This document shows positions 1 to 13,000 of a stretch of 29,045 nucleotides of DNA, piece after piece. Both the position numbers and the translations under genes were made by a program. Each line of letters starts with the position of its first letter. Within the stretch, counting starts at the first letter, position 1. Location of the stretch: IMG/VR virus record IMGVR_UViG_2778261464_000005, one strand, 5' to 3'. Below the pieces are notes generated by a model, which was not told where the DNA came from, searched no databases, and saw nothing but the letters and a program-made list of their open reading frames with translations. The stretch is from a virus (taxonomy: Duplodnaviria > Heunggongvirae > Uroviricota > Caudoviricetes).

Positions 1-77
1 CTTTAATAGATAACTATAATAAAGTTAAAAAATATTTAGATGGTTTTAAATCTCATTGCTATAAGTATAAATGTGGA

Positions 78-626
78 GTGGAGTATAAAAGACGCGCCGC
101 AACAGCCTTAGCTCATGGTATTTATGGGGATACTGATGAGGCTATCAGGAAATTTAATGATATTAACAGTGAAATAATAAAAGATCATGAAGAATCTGTC
201 CGGGCTAGATTATGCTATCAAATCGGAGCGTTTACACCTGTTATAGTATTGTCAGTAATTCTATTATTTATTTATCTGTTTAGAGATGCTGTTTTTTTTG
301 TAAAAAACCCCCTGTTTCTAACCTTACCTGTTTGTTTATTTTGGGCTTCTTTAGGGGGATATCTTTCTGTTTCACTAACCATAAAAAACACAGATCGAGA
401 AAAATCTTTAAAGAGAAGAATCTATTATTTTTATGGTGTAGAAAGATGTTTAATTGCTTTAGTGGCTGGTGTCATTTGTTATGCTATAATAAAAAGCGGA
501 TTAGTTCTTGATTTACTAAACAAAGAAGACAATAAATATGTGTTGTTTATAATATATTTACTTTCTGGGTTTAGCGAGACACTTATTCCAAATGCGCTTA
601 AAAGTATTGAGCGAAAGATAGACTAA
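78..626 (+). CDS. Polytopic membrane protein, function unknown; probably 5'-truncated by the window edge
   Basis: Track ORF begins with GTG at 78, but the same frame has no stop back to position 3, so the true start may lie upstream of the window. About four hydrophobic helices (VIVLSVILLFIYLF, LFLTLPVCLFWASLGG, LIALVAGVICYAII, YVLFIIYLLSGF). AT-rich and Lys-rich, unlike the prophage backbone. Confidence 0.45.
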   Translation: MEYKRRAATALAHGIYGDTDEAIRKFNDINSEIIKDHEESVRARLCYQIGAFTPVIVLSVILLFIYLFRDAVFFVKNPLFLTLPVCLFWASLGGYLSVSLTIKNTDREKSLKRRIYYFYGVERCLIALVAGVICYAIIKSGLVLDLLNKEDNKYVLFIIYLLSGFSETLIPNALKSIERKID

Positions 627-640
627 ATGTAAATTGTATT

Positions 641-1830
641 AGCTCAGACCTGATCTGACAGTTACCGGTTATTTATACAGGTATCTGTCAGATTACATCT
701 GGCTTAAATTTTTCTCGGCCCAGATGCGCTTTCCATCAAGTAACGTTTCCATTGGCGTCCGCCCATTGCACATTTTTCCCTGATGGGTTCGCTCATTATT
801 ATAGTGAGCCAGCCATTCATCAAGATCCGACTGTAATGTATCAAGATCGCCGTACAGTTTTTTACGGAACGTTACCTGATAAAATTCGTTCAGGATTGTT
901 TTATGGAACCGCTCGCAGATGCCGTTGGTCTGCGGGGACATCGCCTTTGTTTTCGTGTGTTCTACATCGTTTATTGCCAGATAAAGCTGATAATCATGCT
1001 GCTCTACTTTGCCACAGTACTCCGTGCCTCTGTCGGTCAGTATTCTCAGTATCGGCAGGCCCTGAGACGCATAAAACGGCAGTACACGATCATTCAGTAA
1101 GTCAGCCGCGGTAATCGGTGTTTTGGTGACGTAAAGCTTACAGTGAGCCACTTTCGAGTACGTATCAACGAACGTCTGCTGATAAATACGCCCGGCACCT
1201 TTCAGGTTGCCTACATAGAACGTGTCCTGCGAACCCAGATATCCCGGATGAGCCGTTTCGATTTCGCCACAGGCCTCGTCATCACTGGCTTTACGCTCCA
1301 GTGCTGCGATCTGGCTGTCAGTTAACTCAATGCCATCACGGGCTACTTTTTCTTCCAGTGCTTTCGGACGTTTTTTGAAATTCTCAAGGTTATGGCGTAA
1401 CCAGACAGAATGGACACCACTGCCGGAGATAAAAACGCCCTGTTTACGCAGCTCGTTGCTGCGTCCGGTGCTGACTGTGTGCCGGGAAAGCGACGGCGTA
1501 ATCAACAACAGCCTGTTCAGTTGCCTCATCGGTACGGTTCTTAAGGTTAGGAGCGCGGCGACTACGATTAATCAGCGCATCCACACCACCTTCATCGACC
1601 AGTTCGCGGTAACGATAAAACGTATCACGCGAAACGCCCATGATTTTACAGGCTTTTGATACGTTGCTGAGTTCTTCAGCCAGATTGAGCAAACCGGTTT
1701 TGTGTTTGATAACGGGATTGGTAGTATGAAGCATGAGAGTTACCTCGTGTTTTGTATAAGGATTCGACACCCATATCAAAACCGGTAACTCTCAACCTTT
1801 CAAGGCTCAGTGTCAGATCAAGTCGCGACT
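641..1830 (-). mobile_element. IS481-family (YagA-like) insertion sequence, about 1.2 kb, between the left-edge ORF and the 3' end of int
   Basis: Encloses the HTH + rve/DDE transposase ORFs. Ends share TGATCTGACA (about 651-660; reverse complement at about 1811-1820) and GTTACCGGTT (about 661-670; reverse complement at about 1781-1790), but the right end has about 20 extra bp between the two blocks, so the terminal inverted repeats are asymmetric. Boundaries approximate. Confidence 0.55.
693..1779 (-). pseudogene. IS481-family transposase (HTH + rve integrase core, YagA-like), split by a frameshift into two overlapping ORFs
   Basis: ORF 1444..1779 (111 aa) has the N-terminal HTH (SKACKIMGVSRDTFYRYRELVDEGG) and ends ...AFPAHSQHRT; ORF 693..1529 (278 aa) has the DDE/rve core (TDRGTEYCG ... 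SPQTNGICERFHKT). Together about 380 aa, the size of one IS481-type transposase. IS481-family transposases are normally a single ORF, so the split reads as a disrupting frameshift rather than a programmed one. Confidence 0.7.
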
Positions 1831-1845
1831 AATACATGTAAATAT

Positions 1846-2976
1846 TCATATTGTTAAAGTTACCCAATTTTTTCCGCGGAGATCGTTATAACGATCAGTT
1901 TGTTGCTGGGTTTTATGTCCCAGCAATTTCTGAGTATCTATTCCCTGTTCTTTGTATAGCCTTTCTGACAATGAACGTTGCTCATGAAAGGTTGCTGGGG
2001 TTCCTTCACCCCAATCAATTTCAGCCAGATCCCTTGCTTTGCTAAAATTCATAGTCAGAGTATTAGCTTTTACTTGTGCCCCACGTTCTGCCTGTGAAGT
2101 TGATCTGAAAAAATGTACTAAGTATGGACTATCTACATAGTCACGGCAGCGAGCTACAACATCGCGCAGGCTCCAGTTGATTACATTCAAACGAAGAGAA
2201 AGAGGAATGGCTATTTTGCTGCCGGTTTTTTCCTGTTCGATATGCAGATGATCATCCCAGATATCGCTGAATTTCATTTTGGATATATCTCCCAAACGTT
2301 GGCCAGTAACCAGCGCTAACAGCATGGCATTTCCCATGTAACGATGAGTGGAGTCTGCGATATCAAAAATTTTTTGCCATTCTTCCAGGCTGAGGCGTTG
2401 ACGGGTGATTTTCCTTCTGGGTTGCTTCGTCGCAAGAGCAGGGTTATACCCTGGTGGAACTTCGCCATAATGCTGTGCTTCCTTAAACACATCGATTAAT
2501 ACAGACCTTACGACTTGGGCCATTCTAGGCTGTCCAGCTGTAATATACTCATCAAGCAATTGTGCTATATCTCTGACATCAACGGATGAGATCAACTTCA
2601 TTCCTGCTCGTTCTCTGAGCAAGGATACTGGTTTGGCTTTTTGCTTATAGGTATTGAGTCTTATATCACCACTTTTGAGCCTATCATCCTGGATCGCTTG
2701 ATAGCGATCTAACCAGGTTGACGTTGTGATCGCTTTTCCTTTGCAGGTTGCGATCCTGTCACTGATAGCCAGAATCTGTCGGGTTCTTTGTTCAGCCAGG
2801 CGTGTATTGGCTTCAGTGGCAATAGCGATGGCTTCAGCTTCGTTAGTTCCCAACGCATGAAATTTCCCTGTTACTGGATGCTTATACCGCCAATAGACTT
2901 TATTTACCTTCCTACTATAAAGCGGATATAAGTTAGGTACTGAAACATTATTCTTACGCGGTCTGGCTGCCATCAC
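1846..2976 (-). CDS. int: Lambda-family tyrosine integrase
   Basis: 376 aa with N-terminal arm-binding-type region (NLYPLYSRKVNKVYWRYKHPVTGKFHALG) and C-terminal catalytic region (FHEQRSLSERLYKEQ...LLGHKTQQQTDRYNDLRGKNW) colinear with lambda Int as I recall it. Overlapping xis immediately upstream on the same strand. Confidence 0.9.
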   Translation of the reverse strand: MMAARPRKNNVSVPNLYPLYSRKVNKVYWRYKHPVTGKFHALGTNEAEAIAIATEANTRLAEQRTRQILAISDRIATCKGKAITTSTWLDRYQAIQDDRLKSGDIRLNTYKQKAKPVSLLRERAGMKLISSVDVRDIAQLLDEYITAGQPRMAQVVRSVLIDVFKEAQHYGEVPPGYNPALATKQPRRKITRQRLSLEEWQKIFDIADSTHRYMGNAMLLALVTGQRLGDISKMKFSDIWDDHLHIEQEKTGSKIAIPLSLRLNVINWSLRDVVARCRDYVDSPYLVHFFRSTSQAERGAQVKANTLTMNFSKARDLAEIDWGEGTPATFHEQRSLSERLYKEQGIDTQKLLGHKTQQQTDRYNDLRGKNWVTLTI

Positions 2977-3199
2977 TCAAGATCCGTTGCAAAAGTAATG
3001 AGTCATTTTTCTTGATTACTGGTGTTACCAACTCCCCAACTAACTCAGCGTCCTCACGCACTCGCCATAACCGACCTTGTTTCATGGCCGGTGGGCAAAA
3101 TAAATTCTGCTTAGCATAACGACGCAATGTGGACACACTTGGAGGATTACTTCTGTATTTTTCAGAGGCCCATTCTTCAAGAGTTAACATTTGAAGCAT
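2954..3199 (-). CDS. xis: Excisionase (lambda Xis-like)
   Basis: 81 aa, MLTLEEWASEKYRSNPPSVSTLRRYAKQNLFCPPAMKQGRLWRVRED resembles the lambda Xis winged-helix N-terminus. Overlaps the int start by 23 nt, the classic xis-int arrangement. True start may be the internal Met at about 3190. Confidence 0.75.
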   Translation of the reverse strand: MLQMLTLEEWASEKYRSNPPSVSTLRRYAKQNLFCPPAMKQGRLWRVREDAELVGELVTPVIKKNDSLLLQRILSDGSQTA

Positions 3200-3272
3200 A
3201 TGCGATCACCTTGTTACTTCACTAACTGTTCAGTCTCTGCATATCGACCCTGCAAGGTCGGTTAGTTTCTCC

Positions 3273-3361
3273 ACAAAACAGAGAAGAGCACCTGTGGCCA
3301 CAACTATCAGGATGGATCGGGTTATGACCCCGTCATCCGGGGATACTCTTCTCTGTTTTGT
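3273..3361. repeat. Perfect 16-bp inverted repeat (ACAAAACAGAGAAGAG / CTCTTCTCTGTTTTGT) flanking a 57-bp spacer
   Basis: Read directly from the sequence; lies in an ORF-poor GC-rich stretch between xis and the next gene. Coordinates approximate. Confidence 0.6.
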
Positions 3362-3367
3362 AAAAAG

Positions 3368-3408
3368 GGCGGTACCAGCCGGAAGCAAGGGTACAAGCTG
3401 GTACCGCC
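3368..3408. repeat. Perfect 12-bp inverted repeat (GGCGGTACCAGC / GCTGGTACCGCC) with a 17-nt loop
   Basis: Read directly. The loop contains GGTACAAG, the same octamer as the half-site of the OR palindrome at 5230-5250. Further GC-rich stem-loops follow up to about 3560. Confidence 0.55.
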
Positions 3409-3625
3409 AAGACTACACACAGCATAAAGTTGTGGTGCCGGGTGCCTCCCGGTGCCTGGCGAAGGTTGCACACCAGGCGGGTGGGTATCCACAGAAGGTC
3501 GACTGTCAGCCTCAACCTTAACCCGCGTGCGCTGAGCCGCATTCACCACAACGCTAAGGATTCTCTCTGGTTGAAAATACTTAGCTGTTATGTGCCTGCT
3601 TTTAGCCACATCAGGCGAGGTGGAC

Positions 3626-3680
3626 CTGGTTATTCCCCAACAACAAGGATTCGGTTAATCTGGTTATCCCCAACAACGCA
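3626..3680 (+). repeat. Two copies of a ~20-bp direct repeat (CTGGTTAT(T)CCCCAACAAC) spaced ~34 bp, directly upstream of the 3693 start codon
   Basis: Read directly; the position suggests a regulator-binding or promoter element for the moron at 3693..4127. Confidence 0.5.
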
Positions 3681-3692
3681 AAAGGAAAAGAA

Positions 3693-4127
3693 ATGTCCGG
3701 TAATATCTATACGCTGTACAAATCCCACTGTGAAAATGTTGGAAAGTATCGGGGCATTGAAATCAGTGGGGTAGTGTCATCAGTCGAAATAAGCAAAGTT
3801 GAATCAAGGGCAACATTACTAACTCTTCTGGACCTTGTGTTACATGAGCACCGGAAGAAATTCGGCACTCCCTATAATCAGTTGAATGGGAAAAAGGCTC
3901 TGGTTCACCTTATTCTGATGAAGCATCACTGGATGCCAAAACAGATTAATGAGATGAAATTTGATGAACTTCTTCTTTCAATTCAGGATGAACTCACACT
4001 TGATAAAATAAGCGTAACCGCCCAGAAATTTTTAGATTATCGAGACTGGAGATCACAAATTCATCACTTTGATGATTTTGACGAAAATGAATGGGATCCT
4101 AATTTGTCTGCACAATATCTAAAGTAA
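3693..4127 (+). CDS. Hypothetical protein (AT-rich moron between xis and the immunity region)
   Basis: 144-aa ORF with no recognisable motif, transcribed opposite to int/xis/cI, lower GC than neighbours, preceded by the direct repeats above. Confidence 0.55.
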   Translation: MSGNIYTLYKSHCENVGKYRGIEISGVVSSVEISKVESRATLLTLLDLVLHEHRKKFGTPYNQLNGKKALVHLILMKHHWMPKQINEMKFDELLLSIQDELTLDKISVTAQKFLDYRDWRSQIHHFDDFDENEWDPNLSAQYLK

Positions 4128-4305
4128 CATCCTGTGATAAAACCGTGATTTCCTGATCCAGTTTTTTTAAGGAGTCTATTGTTTCCTGTCGATAAGACAG
4201 CACTTCACGAAGCTGGTTTATAGCTGCCAGCTTCTTTGTCATCCACTCATAAATTTCCTCATCTGTGTAGTCAGGCGCGACGATTTTGGGTTCTGTTTTG
4301 TGCAT
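4099..4305 (-). CDS. Small hypothetical protein (68 aa), first gene of the leftward early transcript
   Basis: Internal ATG at 4305 preceded by GAGGAGG (spacing ~6). Its 3' end overlaps the 3' end of the convergent 3693..4127 gene by 29 nt. No arginine-rich N-like motif. Confidence 0.45.
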   Translation of the reverse strand: MHKTEPKIVAPDYTDEEIYEWMTKKLAAINQLREVLSYRQETIDSLKKLDQEITVLSQDVTLDIVQTN

Positions 4306-4363
4306 TTCACACCTCCTCAAGTTATCAGTTACTTGTTGATGGGGACCAGATTGTTAAAGAGCT

Positions 4364-4388
4364 AAGCGTCCTGTAGGGCGCTTTTTTG
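4364..4388 (+). terminator. Putative intrinsic terminator (hairpin AAGCGTCC-TGTA-GGGCGCTT followed by T6)
   Basis: Stem with one G:T wobble plus TTTTTTG run, read directly. It could stop plus-strand transcription from the 3693 moron before the immunity region. Confidence 0.45.
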
Positions 4389-4454
4389 TTGCTAACGAAT
4401 CATCCTGGACTTCATATGCCCCAGGCGGCTACTTCGTGGGCGTCCTGCCTGTTT

Positions 4455-4500
4455 GTTGTTTTTCTTGGGTACATTATGTATCTCAAAGGTACATTGTCAA
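4455..4500. promoter_or_regulatory. Putative leftward operator/promoter region (OL/PL-like) carrying two GGTACA half-sites
   Basis: GGGTACATTATGTA and AGGTACATTGTCAAG share the GGTACA core with the OR palindrome. Sits between the cI terminator and the leftward small gene. Confidence 0.35.
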
Positions 4501-4502
4501 GT

Positions 4503-4526
4503 ATAAAAAAACCTGCCGAAGCAGGT
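4503..4526 (-). terminator. Intrinsic terminator downstream of cI (minus strand)
   Basis: Perfect hairpin ACCTGC-CGAA-GCAGGT (4511-4526) with an A7 run on the plus strand, i.e. a U-run after the hairpin on the minus strand, 14 nt past the cI stop. Confidence 0.6.
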
Positions 4527-4539
4527 TCATAAACATTGA

Positions 4540-5214
4540 TTAGGCTTTGATTTTGTATCTTCTTGGTTTTCCTGAGAAAATCACAGTACCAATTATAGAG
4601 CAATTACCGTTGATCTTAATGTAAGGCTCAGGCCAGTTTGGGTTTAACGCTTTGAGATAACGCTGTGTCCCATCTTCTATCAACCTTTTGAAGGTGGTTT
4701 CACCTGTATCGTGCATCAATGCAATAACGTCGTCACCGTGGCAGGCAGGTACTTCAGGATCGACAAAAATCATGTCTCCCGGGCGGTACTCATCAATCAT
4801 TGAATCACCTATCACCCGCAAGATATAAGTCATTTCCCCACAGGGTACAGGGCAGGGATACGTTTCTGCTGTGCTCAAATCAACCTCAGAATATCCAACT
4901 TCTTTCCATGCTCCGGCCTGTACCCATGATATGACAGGGACTAATGTGATTTGTTTATTAGTGATTGAAACATCAGGTTTTTTTGTGATGTTCGTTGTCT
5001 GGTGTTCTTGATCGAGCCATCCGACAGGCAGGTCGAAACATTTTTCGATGTGTCGTGCCATGCTGTCACCGATATTTTTAGTAGCACCATCTCCCATAAA
5101 CCTGCTGGTTTGGGTTGGCTCGCGATCAATCATAGTGGCAAAGGAAGAATTCCCGCCAACACCATCTCTCAGTTTTCTGGCGTTAGACCGCCGGATGTCA
5201 TGGATTGTTTTCAT
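4540..5214 (-). CDS. cI: CI-type prophage repressor (N-terminal HTH + C-terminal S24 LexA-like autopeptidase)
   Basis: 224 aa. The C-terminal segment VIGDSMIDEYRPGDMIFVDPE...FKRLIEDG...LKALNPNWP matches the S24 peptidase motif of lambda CI/LexA. Divergent from the Cro-like gene across an operator-bearing intergenic region. Confidence 0.85.
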   Translation of the reverse strand: MKTIHDIRRSNARKLRDGVGGNSSFATMIDREPTQTSRFMGDGATKNIGDSMARHIEKCFDLPVGWLDQEHQTTNITKKPDVSITNKQITLVPVISWVQAGAWKEVGYSEVDLSTAETYPCPVPCGEMTYILRVIGDSMIDEYRPGDMIFVDPEVPACHGDDVIALMHDTGETTFKRLIEDGTQRYLKALNPNWPEPYIKINGNCSIIGTVIFSGKPRRYKIKA

Positions 5215-5229
5215 AACGAAATTAAAACC

Positions 5230-5250
5230 CTTGTACCGTTAAGGTACAAG
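5230..5250. promoter_or_regulatory. OR-like operator: perfect palindrome CTTGTACC-GTTAA-GGTACAAG in the cI/cro intergenic region
   Basis: 8-bp arms with a 5-bp spacer, read directly. A candidate PR follows (TTGAAG at ~5255, TAATAT at ~5277), and another GGTACA lies at ~5293. Confidence 0.55.
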
Positions 5251-5304
5251 TATCTTGAAGGTTCATTTTAATCATGTAATATGTATATTGGAGGTACATA
5301 TTGT

Positions 5305-5505
5305 ATGAAAGCGTATTGGGACTCTTTAACCAAAGAACAGCAGGGCGAGTTGGCCGGAAAAGTTGGCTCAACACCTGGCTACTTACGGCTGGTTTTCAAT
5401 GGCTATAAAAAAGCCAGTTTTGTGCTGGCTAAAAAACTTGAGCAATGCACGTCAGGTGCAATTACGAAATCTGACTTAAGACCGGATATCTATCCGAAAG
5501 ATTAG
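5305..5505 (+). CDS. cro: Cro/YdaS-like HTH regulator
   Basis: Start taken at the internal ATG 5305 (MKAYWDSLTKEQQGELAGKVGSTPGYLRLVFNGYKKAS...), preceded by GGAGG ~9 nt upstream. Small HTH protein divergent from cI. Confidence 0.7.
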   Translation: MKAYWDSLTKEQQGELAGKVGSTPGYLRLVFNGYKKASFVLAKKLEQCTSGAITKSDLRPDIYPKD

Positions 5506-5536
5506 CAGAACACTTTCAATTTTTAACCACAGAACG

Positions 5537-6106
5537 ATGAGGCTAATCGTGGGTAAGCATCACTGGAAAATAGAAAAACAGCCTGAGTGGTACATGAAAG
5601 CTGTCAGAAAAACTATCGCGGCGTTGCCGGGTGGTTACGCTGAAGCCGCTGACTGGCTGGATGTAACAGAGAACGCTTTATTCAACCGCCTTCGTGCAGA
5701 TGGCGATCAGATTTTTCCGCTGGGATGGGCAATGGTTTTACAGCGTGCTGGTGGCACTCACTTCATTGCTGATGCTGTGGCGCAGTCTGCAAATGGCGTA
5801 TTTGTGTCTCTTCCTGACGTCGAGGATGTGGACAACGCCGATATTAACCAGCGTCTGCTGGAAGTCATTGAACAGATCGGCAGTTATTCAAAACAGATTC
5901 GTTCAGCAATCGAAGACGGTGTAGTGGAACCGCATGAGAAGACAGCAATTAACGACGAGCTGTATCTCTCAATTTCGAAGCTGCAGGAGCATGCAGCACT
6001 GGTCTACAAAATCTTTTGCATTTCAGAAAGTAATGACGCCCGCGAGTGTGCAGCTCCGGGCGTCGTGGCGTCGATTGCTTCTGGTTGTGGAGAAACTAAC
6101 GCATGA
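5537..6106 (+). CDS. CII-like / YdaT-family regulatory protein
   Basis: 189 aa directly after the Cro-like gene; size and position fit the Rac-type YdaS-YdaT pair. Start uncertain (ATG 5537, or GTG 5551 with a better SD). Confidence 0.55.
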
Positions 6107-6461
6107 ACAGTTTAACAACACACTACCGTCGCTCGCAACTGATTGCGCTTCCTGTACCGGGTGGAAAAGCGAAGGTGGAATATTGCTATGCAGTGAATGT
6201 ACCAGGTGACAGGGAAATTGTAACCCACAGCTTTGCAGAGTGGGCTGTGGGTGATTTCAACCGGCAGAAGGAGACAGTCCTTTGCGACAAGTTAACCGCT
6301 GGTTCAAAGATCACTACGGAGTGCCCGTCAGAGTTATTCGTTGGGAGCCGGAAACACAACGGGTTATCTACCTCCGTGAAGGCTATGAGCATGAGTGCTT
6401 CAGCCCGCTCGAACAGTTTCGTCGTAAATTCAGGGAAATAGAGGTCGGTCATGAGCACTAA
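6103..6461 (+). pseudogene. Small gene between the CII-like and replication genes that needs a frame change to be read through
   Basis: ATG 6103 overlaps the upstream stop (ATGA). The protein-like N-terminal half is in that frame to about 6270. The protein-like C-terminal half (...[59 protein letters not shown]) is in the -1 frame, open from 6255, and ends at TAA 6459-6461 overlapping the replication gene start. The original frame continues as a Ser-rich, low-complexity tail to TAG 6441. Confidence 0.4.
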
Positions 6462-7392
6462 ATTAACCGGCTATGTATGGGATGGTTGCGCTGCGTCAGG
6501 CATGAAATTATCCAGCGTGGCAATTATGGCCCGCCTGGCTGATTTCAGTAATGACGAAGGTGTGTGCTGGCCATCAATTGAAACCATTGCCCGTCAGATT
6601 GGCGCGGGGATGAGTACCGTCAGAACGGCTATCGCACGGCTGGAAGCAGAAGGCTGGTTAACGCGTAAGGCGCGTCGCCAGGGTAACCGCAATGCGTCGA
6701 ATGTTTATCAGCTTAACGTTGCGAAGCTTCAGGCAGCGGCATTTTCTCAACTGTCAGATTCTGACCCGTCAAAATCTGACGCATCAAAATCTGACCCGTC
6801 AAAATTTGATGCGTCGAAATCTGGCAAAAAAGCGGGTTTTCACCCGTCAGAATCTGGCGGGGATCCGTCAGTAAAATCAAAACATGATCCGTCAGATAAA
6901 AAACCTTCTCGTCCGGACGCTTCGCAACCGGACACGCAGACGGCTGAACAGGATTTTTTAACTCGCCATCCTGATGCGGTTGTATTCAGCCCTAAAAAGC
7001 GCCAGTGGGGGACGCAGGATGATTTGACCTGCGCACAGTGGCTCTGGAAAAAAATCATCGCCCTGTACGAGCAGGCTGCCGAATGTGACGGCGAGGTGGT
7101 TCGTCCCAAAGAACCGAACTGGACAGCCTGGGCAAACGAAATTCGCCTGATGTGTGTACAGGATGGGCGTACTCACAAACAAATCTGCGAGATGTACAGC
7201 CGCGTCAGCCGCGATCCGTTCTGGTGCCGTAACGTGCTCAGCCCGTCGAAGCTGCGGGAAAAATGGGATGAGCTTTCCCTGCGCTTATCGCCGTCCGTCA
7301 GCACGTACACCGAAAAACGCGAGGACCCGTACTTCAAAGCCAGTTACGACAACGTGGACTACAGCCAGATCCCGGCAGGATTCAGAGGGTGA
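6451..7392 (+). CDS. Replication initiation protein (N-terminal HTH; iteron-encoded repeat linker; C-terminal Trp-rich domain)
   Basis: 313 aa. N-terminal LSSVAIMARLADFSNDEGVCWPSIETIARQIGAGMSTVRTAIARLEAEGWL is typical of phage replication-initiator HTH domains. The middle SDPSK/SDASK/SDPSK/FDASK repeats are encoded by the tandem DNA repeats. Position after cII mirrors lambda O. Confidence 0.75.
   Translation: MSTKLTGYVWDGCAASGMKLSSVAIMARLADFSNDEGVCWPSIETIARQIGAGMSTVRTAIARLEAEGWLTRKARRQGNRNASNVYQLNVAKLQAAAFSQLSDSDPSKSDASKSDPSKFDASKSGKKAGFHPSESGGDPSVKSKHDPSDKKPSRPDASQPDTQTAEQDFLTRHPDAVVFSPKKRQWGTQDDLTCAQWLWKKIIALYEQAAECDGEVVRPKEPNWTAWANEIRLMCVQDGRTHKQICEMYSRVSRDPFWCRNVLSPSKLREKWDELSLRLSPSVSTYTEKREDPYFKASYDNVDYSQIPAGFRG
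6755..6900 (+). repeat. Iteron array (probable origin of replication) inside the replication initiator gene
   Basis: Five tandem 15-bp units (TCTGACCCGTCAAAA, TCTGACGCATCAAAA, TCTGACCCGTCAAAA, TTTGATGCGTCGAAA, TCTGGC...) followed by three more CCGTCAG-containing units and an A-rich tract (GATAAAAAACC). Coordinates approximate. Confidence 0.6.
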
Positions 7393-10780: not shown

Positions 10781-10799
10781 GACGGCCATATTGGCCGTC
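10781..10799. terminator. Perfect hairpin (GACGGCCA-TAT-TGGCCGTC) between convergent Q and the minus-strand cassette; possible bidirectional terminator
   Basis: 8-bp perfect stem read directly; overlaps the stop codon of the 10798..11976 gene and lies 8 nt after the Q stop. No strong U-run on either side. Confidence 0.4.
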
Positions 10800-11976
10800 A
10801 GCTAAATAAATATGTAATAGCATAAGGCGTAAGTAAAAAGTAGAATCTAAATGTAAGATATAAGCCACATAAAACTATAATTCCTAATGAGGCAAAAACA
10901 ACTTTCTGAACAAGCAATCTTGTGGTTAAACTATCAAATGTATCCTTTATATCTTCGTAAATAGCCTTGAAGTTATATTCTGCTTGTTGTTTTTTATGAT
11001 TTAACTCATCATTTATTGCTGTTAAAGTTTGCCATTGATTAAATAGAACAAATAGAATCATAATAGTGAAGAACAATGCACCCAACACTACAGCTGTGTT
11101 TATTAATGCTTGACTATCCCAACCATTAGCCTGCTTCATTTGAGTCGCAACGATAATTGTTGCGACGGGGATACCTAATATCTGATTTTGTATGTCACTG
11201 AATACTTTATGTATTTTCCCCATCTCTTCTATTTTGGCTACTCGTAACTGATCCAGTATTTTCTCGTAAGAAAAACCAGAAACGAATACTTTGTATCCTT
11301 TTTGATAACTTTCATAAAGTTGTCCTAAATCCCTTAACATGAAGGAAAAAGAGGTTTCTTTAGTTTTAGATTCACATGATGATTTTATACTACTTGCTAA
11401 AATAGTAAGTTTTTGATCTTTATGCGTATCTTCTGCAAAGTTTGCGATCAAATTATGAATCAGATCTCCATTAACATTCATAAGATCATCGCTAGAATAA
11501 TTTACTGGAATTTTTAGTACGTTGGATTCGACGAATACCAATTCAAAATTTGTTTCATCTAAATAAGCAGAACAATCTTTGAATAAAGTAATTAAGCTCA
11601 AAACATCTCTGTACTTGGATATAATAGCAGGCGACTTTTTATCCCTGTTGTGATAATTAAGTTCGATTATAAAGAAGTTACTGGCTTCCTTTATCCTATT
11701 TTTAGGATTTTTTAAATACTCATTAAAAGAGAAATGTAGCTGCCCCAATCGTAATTTGGGGGGGGTTATATGTAAGGTTATAGTTTGGCCTAACTCAATG
11801 TTGCCAGATTCAAGGGTGATGCCAAAATCATGGGGATTCTCTGTGATATCGTTGATGATGTCACAGAGCTCCTCGTTTGAAAGAATGAGTGATGCTTCAG
11901 ATAGGGTACCTGCAAATGTAGCGGCCTTGTAAATAGTCACTAAGTCTTTGAAGGTTCTCTGATTGTTACTGCTCAT
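10798..11976 (-). CDS. Hypothetical protein with ~280-aa soluble N-terminal domain and two C-terminal transmembrane helices (candidate membrane effector)
   Basis: ATG 11976 preceded by AGGTGA; starts 7 nt after the upstream gene stop (operon). Hydrophobic helices ALINTAVVLGALFFTIMILFVLF and VVFASLGIIVLCGLYLTFRFYFLL. AT-rich, no recognisable enzymatic motif. Confidence 0.7.
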   Translation of the reverse strand: MSSNNQRTFKDLVTIYKAATFAGTLSEASLILSNEELCDIINDITENPHDFGITLESGNIELGQTITLHITPPKLRLGQLHFSFNEYLKNPKNRIKEASNFFIIELNYHNRDKKSPAIISKYRDVLSLITLFKDCSAYLDETNFELVFVESNVLKIPVNYSSDDLMNVNGDLIHNLIANFAEDTHKDQKLTILASSIKSSCESKTKETSFSFMLRDLGQLYESYQKGYKVFVSGFSYEKILDQLRVAKIEEMGKIHKVFSDIQNQILGIPVATIIVATQMKQANGWDSQALINTAVVLGALFFTIMILFVLFNQWQTLTAINDELNHKKQQAEYNFKAIYEDIKDTFDSLTTRLLVQKVVFASLGIIVLCGLYLTFRFYFLLTPYAITYLFS

Positions 11977-13000
11977 CCTCTTCACCTAATTCTGATAAAA
12001 TCTCTGATCTTAGCGTATCCGGAATCTCGGTAAGTATCAATTTATCGTTTTCTGAATCATAAAGAACGCTGCCATCATGCAAGGCCGCACGCTCGAATTT
12101 CAGAGACCAATGTTTGGACTTTCCTTTGAAACTAACAAGCCCACGTATAACGTTGCCATCAGGCACGAACCCATCAGAGAACTCCAGATCGTCATTGGTT
12201 AACTTTTCAACTAACAACTCAGGAGCAGTTGGCCATATCTCGTTTGCAAAAATTTGAGTGTCGAAAGTTTCACCAGAACGATTTAAATTTTTTAATTTTT
12301 CATGAGCCTTATTTAGGAACTCTTCACGTGCCTCTGGTTCAAAACCTCTTTCAGTAGCAAATTCTAAAAGTGCATTCCGTAATTTTGTTGTTTCTTGTTT
12401 GGCAATTAGAATATCGTTGCAACCTAAAAACTTTTTGAAATAACCTGCTACTGAATTTTGCCCCTTTAGAAAGCTAATATATCTCTCTTTGCCATTCTGG
12501 CGCCCAGTTAAGTCAATTCGTCCCGCTACTCGAAGTTTAGCAATGTCTAGATATTCACTTTCTTGAATTTCAAAATCGTGGACTGAAGAGCCAACTGCTG
12601 ATGTTAGGATTGCAACCATCAAATAATGATTTCCATTTACCTCATTATGGGCAATTATTACATAACCACCAGTAGACATTGATTCATCATCGGCTCTGGC
12701 TTTTAAATGATTGATCATTCGGATACTAGTATCATAAAAACTATGTGTTTTATTTACGAAATAATCATCAACGATATTACCCATAGGGTAACTATCGCGG
12801 TCATCTTCAAATTTCCCATATCCTTTACCTGCTCTCCCAGAGTACCTTTCAGTAAGTGCGTTAGAGAGGTCTTTTGATGCTTGCTGAACAGGTTTTTCTG
12901 AAGGACAAGGAATAATGGTGGCTAACCCCTGTTGTTCCTTGTTCATAATGTGAACAATAAACTTATGAGTGATATTAGTGGGGGTCGCTGATGCAGTCAT
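11966..13000 (-). CDS. Divergent NdpA/YejK-family (NA37) nucleoid-associated protein homologue
   Basis: 344 aa, about the size of YejK (~335 aa). Colinear blocks with E. coli YejK as I recall it: [20 protein letters not shown] vs [41 protein letters not shown] vs [40 protein letters not shown] vs [25 protein letters not shown]. AT-rich. Confidence 0.7.
   Translation of the reverse strand: [344 protein letters not shown]

Follow-up and report, generated by a model that had tools for sequence, protein, structure and literature searches.

An ISErp1-like IS481-family element with a frameshifted transposase between a cargo gene and intE in an e14-type prophage

The window analyzed here, a stretch of 29,045 nucleotides from a caudovirus (IMG/VR record IMGVR_UViG_2778261464_000005), begins with the 3' part of an orphan cargo gene on the plus strand (positions 1 to 626, with a TAA stop codon at 624-626). 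In the Escherichia coli genome NZ_CP104114 this gene is present in full (11222-12067 of the locus L001) with a GC content of about 31%, and it encodes a hypothetical protein of 281 aa (WP_000892216) that has no match in Pfam, NCBIfam or PADLOC. Convergent with it on the minus strand is intE (1846-2973), which encodes an e14-type integrase of the lambda family, 375 aa in length, with matches to Pfam Arm-DNA-bind_1 (128 bits) and Phage_integrase (63 bits). The excisionase gene xisE follows at 2954-3199, also on the minus strand; it matches Pfam Exc and is annotated as xisE at the same locus elsewhere. Between the cargo gene and intE lies an insertion sequence (IS) of the IS481 family, at 635-1836 on the minus strand, which is the subject of this analysis. 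Beyond xisE the window carries lambdoid early genes, lysis genes, terminase, portal and capsid genes, and the sheath and tube genes of a tail. The minus-strand stretch at 3230-3549, between xisE and a gene of the ECs1072 family, corresponds to a hypothetical gene that is frameshifted at the same locus elsewhere and occupies the position of ymfH in K-12.

Many other E. coli copies of the IS are matched by BLAST, with matches that stop at window positions 635 and 1836/1837, and alignment to an intact copy places the ends at 635 and 1836. The element is complete within these limits and measures 1,202 bp including one extra base, for a native length of 1,201 bp, with TGTATTAG... at 635 and ...CTAATACA at 1836. 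A preliminary description of this DNA had drawn the element at 641-1830, which falls six bases short on each side. The terminal inverted repeats are 26 nt long and 81% complementary, with IRR at the end downstream of the transposase gene (635-660) pairing with IRL at the end upstream of it (1811-1836). Immediately outside the element, TGTAAAT is directly repeated without mismatch at 628-634 and 1837-1843; this 7-bp repeat is the target-site duplication that the preliminary description had proposed to look for in the flanks. Such a perfect duplication shows that the insertion was a simple one, with no rearrangement at the junctions. Two other copies with undisturbed flanks have 7-bp duplications of their own, CATTAAA in NZ_CP148401 (L002, between yhcG and nanQ) and CATTATA in strain 28Eco12; the latter is the reverse complement of the TATAATG tabulated for the same 28Eco12 coordinates (PMC6963479).

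From the duplication it can be deduced that before insertion the cargo gene and intE, which are convergent, lay 10 bp apart (ATGTAAATAT). The stop codons of both genes lie outside the duplicated heptamer, and neither gene is cut by the IS. The intE gene is full length and ends with a TGA stop codon at 1848-1846 on the minus strand, 9 bp from the end of the IS, where a distance of about 20 bp had initially been given.

The assignment to the IS481 family, already made in the preliminary description, holds up well. Two overlapping minus-strand frames are present in the element, the upstream one encoding a winged-helix HTH domain (Pfam HTH_29, 78 bits) and the downstream one an integrase-core fold (rve_3, 47 bits; rve, 32 bits). 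The near-identical intact copy in NZ_CP148401 encodes its transposase (WP_024236841) in a single continuous ORF of 346 aa, with no programmed frameshift, and this protein scores 292.6 bits against the NCBIfam model NF033577 (transpos_IS481), for which the cutoff is 224 bits. Between it and the repaired window protein there are 7 differences in 346 residues. The size of the element, in the range of about 1-1.3 kb, its terminal inverted repeats starting 5'-TGTA, and its short target-site duplications, 7 bp at three independent sites, are likewise what is expected of this family.

Within the family, the copy in E. coli 28Eco12 (CP038505 891175..892368) has been tabulated as IS481 / ISErp1 with the 7-bp duplication TATAATG (PMC6963479). 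By its coordinates this copy is one of our BLAST hits (H11, locus L018), and over its whole length it is 98.1% identical to the window element. The two agree in their terminal sequences, and each is flanked by a 7-bp duplication. The damage in the two copies is different, however, being a 7-bp deletion in 28Eco12 and the extra C plus nine private substitutions in the window. Since the ISErp1 label reaches the window element through this 98%-identical copy, sequence comparison would justify the name ISErp1-like at most. Our literature search found the element named in PMC6963479 alone. The IS is nonetheless already known: public E. coli genomes carry an annotation for this frameshifted element in the same place, adjoining intE, as 'IS481 family transposase, frameshifted'. 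The term YagA-like, used in the preliminary description, turned out to be a loose one: the window transposase and YagA of the K-12 prophage CP4-6 have the broad HTH plus rve (DDE) architecture in common, but they are 24% identical over 307 residues (E = 4e-15 in a single pairwise comparison) and are neither close relatives nor products of the same element.

The two ends of the IS are not alike internally. At the left end the subterminal block GTTACCGGTT (661-670) is contiguous with the terminal repeat, while at the right end about 21 bases (1790-1810) part its partner block (1780-1789) from the terminal repeat. The preliminary description was right about this asymmetry, but its use of the additional bases as a reason for immobility does not stand. 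Both ends, 21-bp spacer included, are base-for-base the same in the intact NZ_CP148401 copy, which is 98.9% identical to the window IS at the DNA level and is itself flanked by a 7-bp duplication; this copy lacks the extra C, has a continuous transposase ORF and sits at a different genomic site. Three more full-length copies (L018, L021 and L022) agree in the layout of the right end, spacer included. Since the spacer is identical in the intact copy and in these three others, it is native architecture upstream of the transposase start rather than damage, and it is uninformative on immobility. Close to the left end there is also an internal inverted repeat (645-701), with 25-nt arms that are 80% complementary and enclose a loop of 7 nt. 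It overlaps the stop codon of the transposase gene and contains a further occurrence of the TCTGACAG motif found in the terminal repeats, and it may act as a nested transposase-binding site or form an RNA hairpin. A scan of the whole window against Rfam found no RNA family.

Compared with the intact copy, the window element has one extra C at position 1462, which turns GCTG-GTCC on the plus strand into GCTGCGTCC. The transposase is inactivated by this single base, in agreement with the earlier report that it was split by a frameshift. The truncated N-terminal product (1444-1734 on the minus strand, ATG at 1734-1732 and stop at 1446-1444) is 96 aa long and consists of 91 native residues, which comprise the HTH domain (HTH_29), followed by 5 out-of-frame residues. 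The downstream frame, at 693-1529 on the minus strand, holds the catalytic (rve/DDE) part of the transposase and has lost its natural start. When the extra C is removed in silico the transposase is again 346 aa in length, with 7 residues that differ from the intact protein. The same C is found in all 11 of the other assemblies in which the full IS at this locus was read (L001, L003 and L005-L013), so it is a real, inherited mutation and not the sequencing artefact that had been considered as an alternative in the preliminary description. Its site lies outside any homopolymer run.

Copies of the IS at this locus differ from each other by 0-2 bases and one indel. Three of the assemblies (L003, L008 and L010) have a further 1-bp deletion at 1770, which we rejected as a compensating change; it is upstream of the start codon and the frame stays broken. 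Relative to eight other copies, nine substitutions are private to the window lineage and seven of these are nonsynonymous, as would be expected of a decaying pseudogene. At position 965 the window has a private C where all other copies compared, including those at the same locus, have T, which corresponds to I257V in the dead transposase frame. Damage is frequent among copies of the IS: of seven others that were fetched, three are truncated, two have frameshifts at full or nearly full length, one has an internal stop and one is intact.

The identical IntE protein is indexed in 477 collection blocks, and we read 10 places that contain it. The order icd, 281-aa gene, IS, intE, xisE was found in 10 of 10; the draft or metagenome places read with identical IntE number nine, and all show it. 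The allele occurs in four complete E. coli genomes (NZ_CP104114, NZ_CP080126, CP173996 [L008] and NZ_CP015912). In the first three of these the full order was read, in each case with the frameshifted IS, while the record of NZ_CP015912 starts inside the IS and the intE side alone was read. When a reconstructed IS-free junction of 800 nt was searched against 5,426 complete E. coli genomes, its flanks were found in four, all split by the IS, and scans for exact 26-mers of the IS-free junction in metagenome contigs and GTDB species-representative genomes found none. We infer the pre-insertion state of the junction between the cargo gene and intE from the target duplication only.

Prophages of full length and prophages with heavy deletions carry the same insertion with the same frameshift, so the insertion predates the diversification of this e14 variant. 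Since the same IS marks remnants and fuller prophages, the prophage deletions came after the IS insertion. The IS can thus conveniently serve to mark the lineage of this e14 variant. The remnants, of about 9 kb (NZ_CP104114 [L001], L003, L008, L010 and L014), have lost most or all of the early, lysis and head genes and keep the tail-fibre genes alone, with tfaE, pinE and mcrA retained; the prophages in the window and in L007, L009 and L011 are much fuller.

The recombination module identifies the prophage as e14-type. Its IntE is 94% identical to that of e14 in K-12, both being 375 aa, and in both prophages xisE overlaps intE in the same way. They also have in common integration into icd with a duplicated icd 3' end (icd::e14 in K-12) and a cargo slot between attL and intE. 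One contig, L009, matches window positions 1-6973 with one mismatch and continues leftwards through the cargo gene into icd. In NZ_CP104114, at the same locus, icd carries a replacement 3' end and is annotated as complete, and this 3' end aligns with the displaced icd' fragment beyond mcrA from ATGTTACGCC... onward. Transferred from these near-identical contigs, the attL crossover region would lie about 1.15 kb leftward of the IS, near coordinate -515 of the window. A search of the whole window for the icd repeat, with 3 mismatches allowed, did not find it, and neither att site is inside the window.

The distance between the attachment site and intE is variable among e14-type prophages. In K-12 the left boundary of e14 is annotated at 165 bp into icd, and between it and intE there are 3.5 kb of cargo (ymfD-ymfE-lit), while in strain 2c3 there are 2.6 kb of cargo between att and intE, with a HAD hydrolase gene and a DprA-like gene. 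The window prophage has a single 281-aa orphan gene in this position. Unlike e14 of K-12 it keeps replication, lysis, head and tail genes, and K-12 e14 has no IS at the equivalent position. Lit is an abortive-infection protease, and the slot between attL and intE looks like a variable cargo slot, possibly one for defence. Because this slot lies between icd/attL and intE, proximity to the int stop codon should not be taken as proximity to att, and for e14-type prophages the expectation that int sits at the prophage edge needs to be corrected.

This arrangement bears directly on the proposal, made in the preliminary description, that the IS abuts the int-proximal end of the prophage and may have inserted into or next to the attachment site expected beside the int stop codon, so that it could block or alter excision. 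The end of the IS is indeed only 9 bp from the intE stop codon, and in phage lambda att is close to int. The sequence to the left of the IS, however, is not host DNA; the left 626 bp of the window are still a prophage cargo gene, and the icd/icd' repeat lies beyond it. In e14-type prophages att is in icd and cargo separates it from intE, by 3.5 kb in K-12, by 2.6 kb in 2c3 and by about 1.15 kb plus the IS here. Both icd and the displaced icd' are present and alignable in NZ_CP104114, which means that an undisturbed att core exists elsewhere, the very observation that the preliminary description had named as one that would speak against it, and the perfect 7-bp duplication shows a simple insertion without a rearranged junction. 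As to the location of att this reading is already refuted, and as an account of the locus we consider it extremely improbable. A lambda-type att requires only about 240 bp around the core (lambda attP). With the IS 1.15 kb from attL, inside the prophage and beyond any plausible att arm region, interference with the recombination substrate is not expected, and the insertion should have no direct effect on Int/Xis recombination or excision. Even less credible, to the point of being negligible, is the idea that the split frame is functional, or else an artefact of sequencing. The transposases of the IS481 family have relatives in the IS3 family, where programmed -1 frameshifting is used, and there is a weak match to NF033516 (transpos_IS3, 81.5 bits). 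Intact copies, though, have one continuous 346-aa ORF, the extra base is present among the copies listed at this locus and in one plasmid fragment only, its site offers neither a slippery heptamer nor a homopolymer, and an artefact is ruled out by the 11 independent assemblies that carry it.

The plasmid fragment raises the question of when the C was gained. A 5'-truncated fragment of the IS on plasmid pCFSAN004181P (NZ_CP012499; L017 2155-2910) has the same +C at the equivalent of 1462, as do related plasmids of about 225 kb that carry the same fragment, and this is a locus unrelated to the prophage. One explanation is that the frameshift is older than the arrival of the element, i.e., that an already frameshifted IS was mobilized in trans into the prophage, in which case the copy would not be immobile. 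In favor of this, the +C is at the same position at two unrelated loci and is absent from the other copies listed, full or partial, and recurrence is not expected at a site outside a homopolymer. If the +C copies have a common ancestry, then a frameshifted element must have been mobilized in trans at least once. On the other hand, the window copy and L017 have no other derived substitution in common. Over window positions 1083-1836 L017 has the consensus base at 7 of 7 private positions of the window lineage, along with about 11 private changes of its own, and independent mutation or gene conversion between copies may also account for the common +C. The comparison covers nine copies, while copies that include position 1462 occur in 177 E. 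coli records. We put common ancestry at close to even odds and lean slightly against mobilization of an already frameshifted element; gain of the C in place, after insertion, is a possible alternative. Rather different is the suggestion that the IS has been kept for a use, with the 96-aa HTH fragment acting as a regulator or transposition inhibitor, or with the insert uncoupling convergent transcription of the cargo gene and intE. Every place read with this IntE allele has the IS, the searches for an empty site found none, the truncated product retains an intact HTH domain, and truncated N-terminal transposase fragments inhibit transposition in IS1 and IS3. Copies of the locus that are 0-2 bases and one indel apart nevertheless point to recent common descent as the explanation of fixation. 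The mostly nonsynonymous substitutions of the lineage are those of a pseudogene, and promoter-like and terminator-like matches in a scan around the IS were no more frequent than in shuffled sequence. We regard retention for use as very unlikely. Similarly doubtful, and to be given very little weight, is a combined scenario in which a +1C sub-lineage kept transposing with the help of intact copies, reached the prophage and was retained there, as a whole copy or for its 96-aa HTH fragment, as a modulator of transposition or of the convergent cargo and intE transcription units.

With regard to mobility, the window copy is best called non-autonomous, not structurally immobile. It cannot move alone because its transposase is broken by the +1C, and it is non-autonomous rather than structurally dead because its ends match those of the intact copy. 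In the four complete genomes with the locus, each chromosome record has a single occurrence of the 71-nt segment that surrounds the frameshift, with no second copy that could serve as helper, and the plasmid records of those four strains are not among the matches listed for this segment. The conclusion of the preliminary description that the copy is probably immobile can therefore be kept in a practical sense, on the grounds that it has no working transposase and no helper copy in the four complete genomes, while the asymmetric ends drop out as a reason. Mobilization of the window copy in trans would be a possibility.

Taken as a whole, the locus is with high probability explained by an ordinary, non-autonomous copy of an IS481-family element inside an e14-type prophage, about 1.15 kb from attL and probably without a direct effect on excision. 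Under this explanation a single transposition of an ISErp1-like IS, by ordinary cut-and-insert chemistry, would have placed the element in the 10 bp that lay between the cargo gene and intE, duplicating the 7-bp target TGTAAAT and interrupting neither of the convergent genes. The +1C breaks the 346-aa transposase into the 96-aa HTH-only fragment and a start-less catalytic frame, and the IS would since have persisted in this prophage lineage as a passenger, fixed and decaying. As an ordinary decayed copy of a known element in a known type of prophage, it matters little in itself. With it the phage genome is 1.2 kb longer, and new sequence begins 9 bp past the end of intE; the insertion may affect 3'-end processing or stability of the intE mRNA, or antisense transcription across the cargo gene.

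Two further features of the prophage deserve mention. In IntE, which is 94% identical to its K-12 counterpart, only the last ~15 residues diverge, and at window positions 1846-1900 the window, K-12 and strain 2c3 differ strongly from one another in the last ~15 intE codons and in the DNA beyond them. This pattern of divergence suggests that cargo is exchanged by recombination at a junction within the 3' end of intE. Farther along the window, at 10798-13000 on the minus strand, a 395-aa orphan gene overlaps a gene for a 344-aa nucleoid-associated protein of the NA37 type (PF04245, 233 bits). Both are transcribed against the late-gene flow, and in the 2c3 prophage the pair is located between a Q-like antiterminator gene and the holin gene; it is likely to be a moron.
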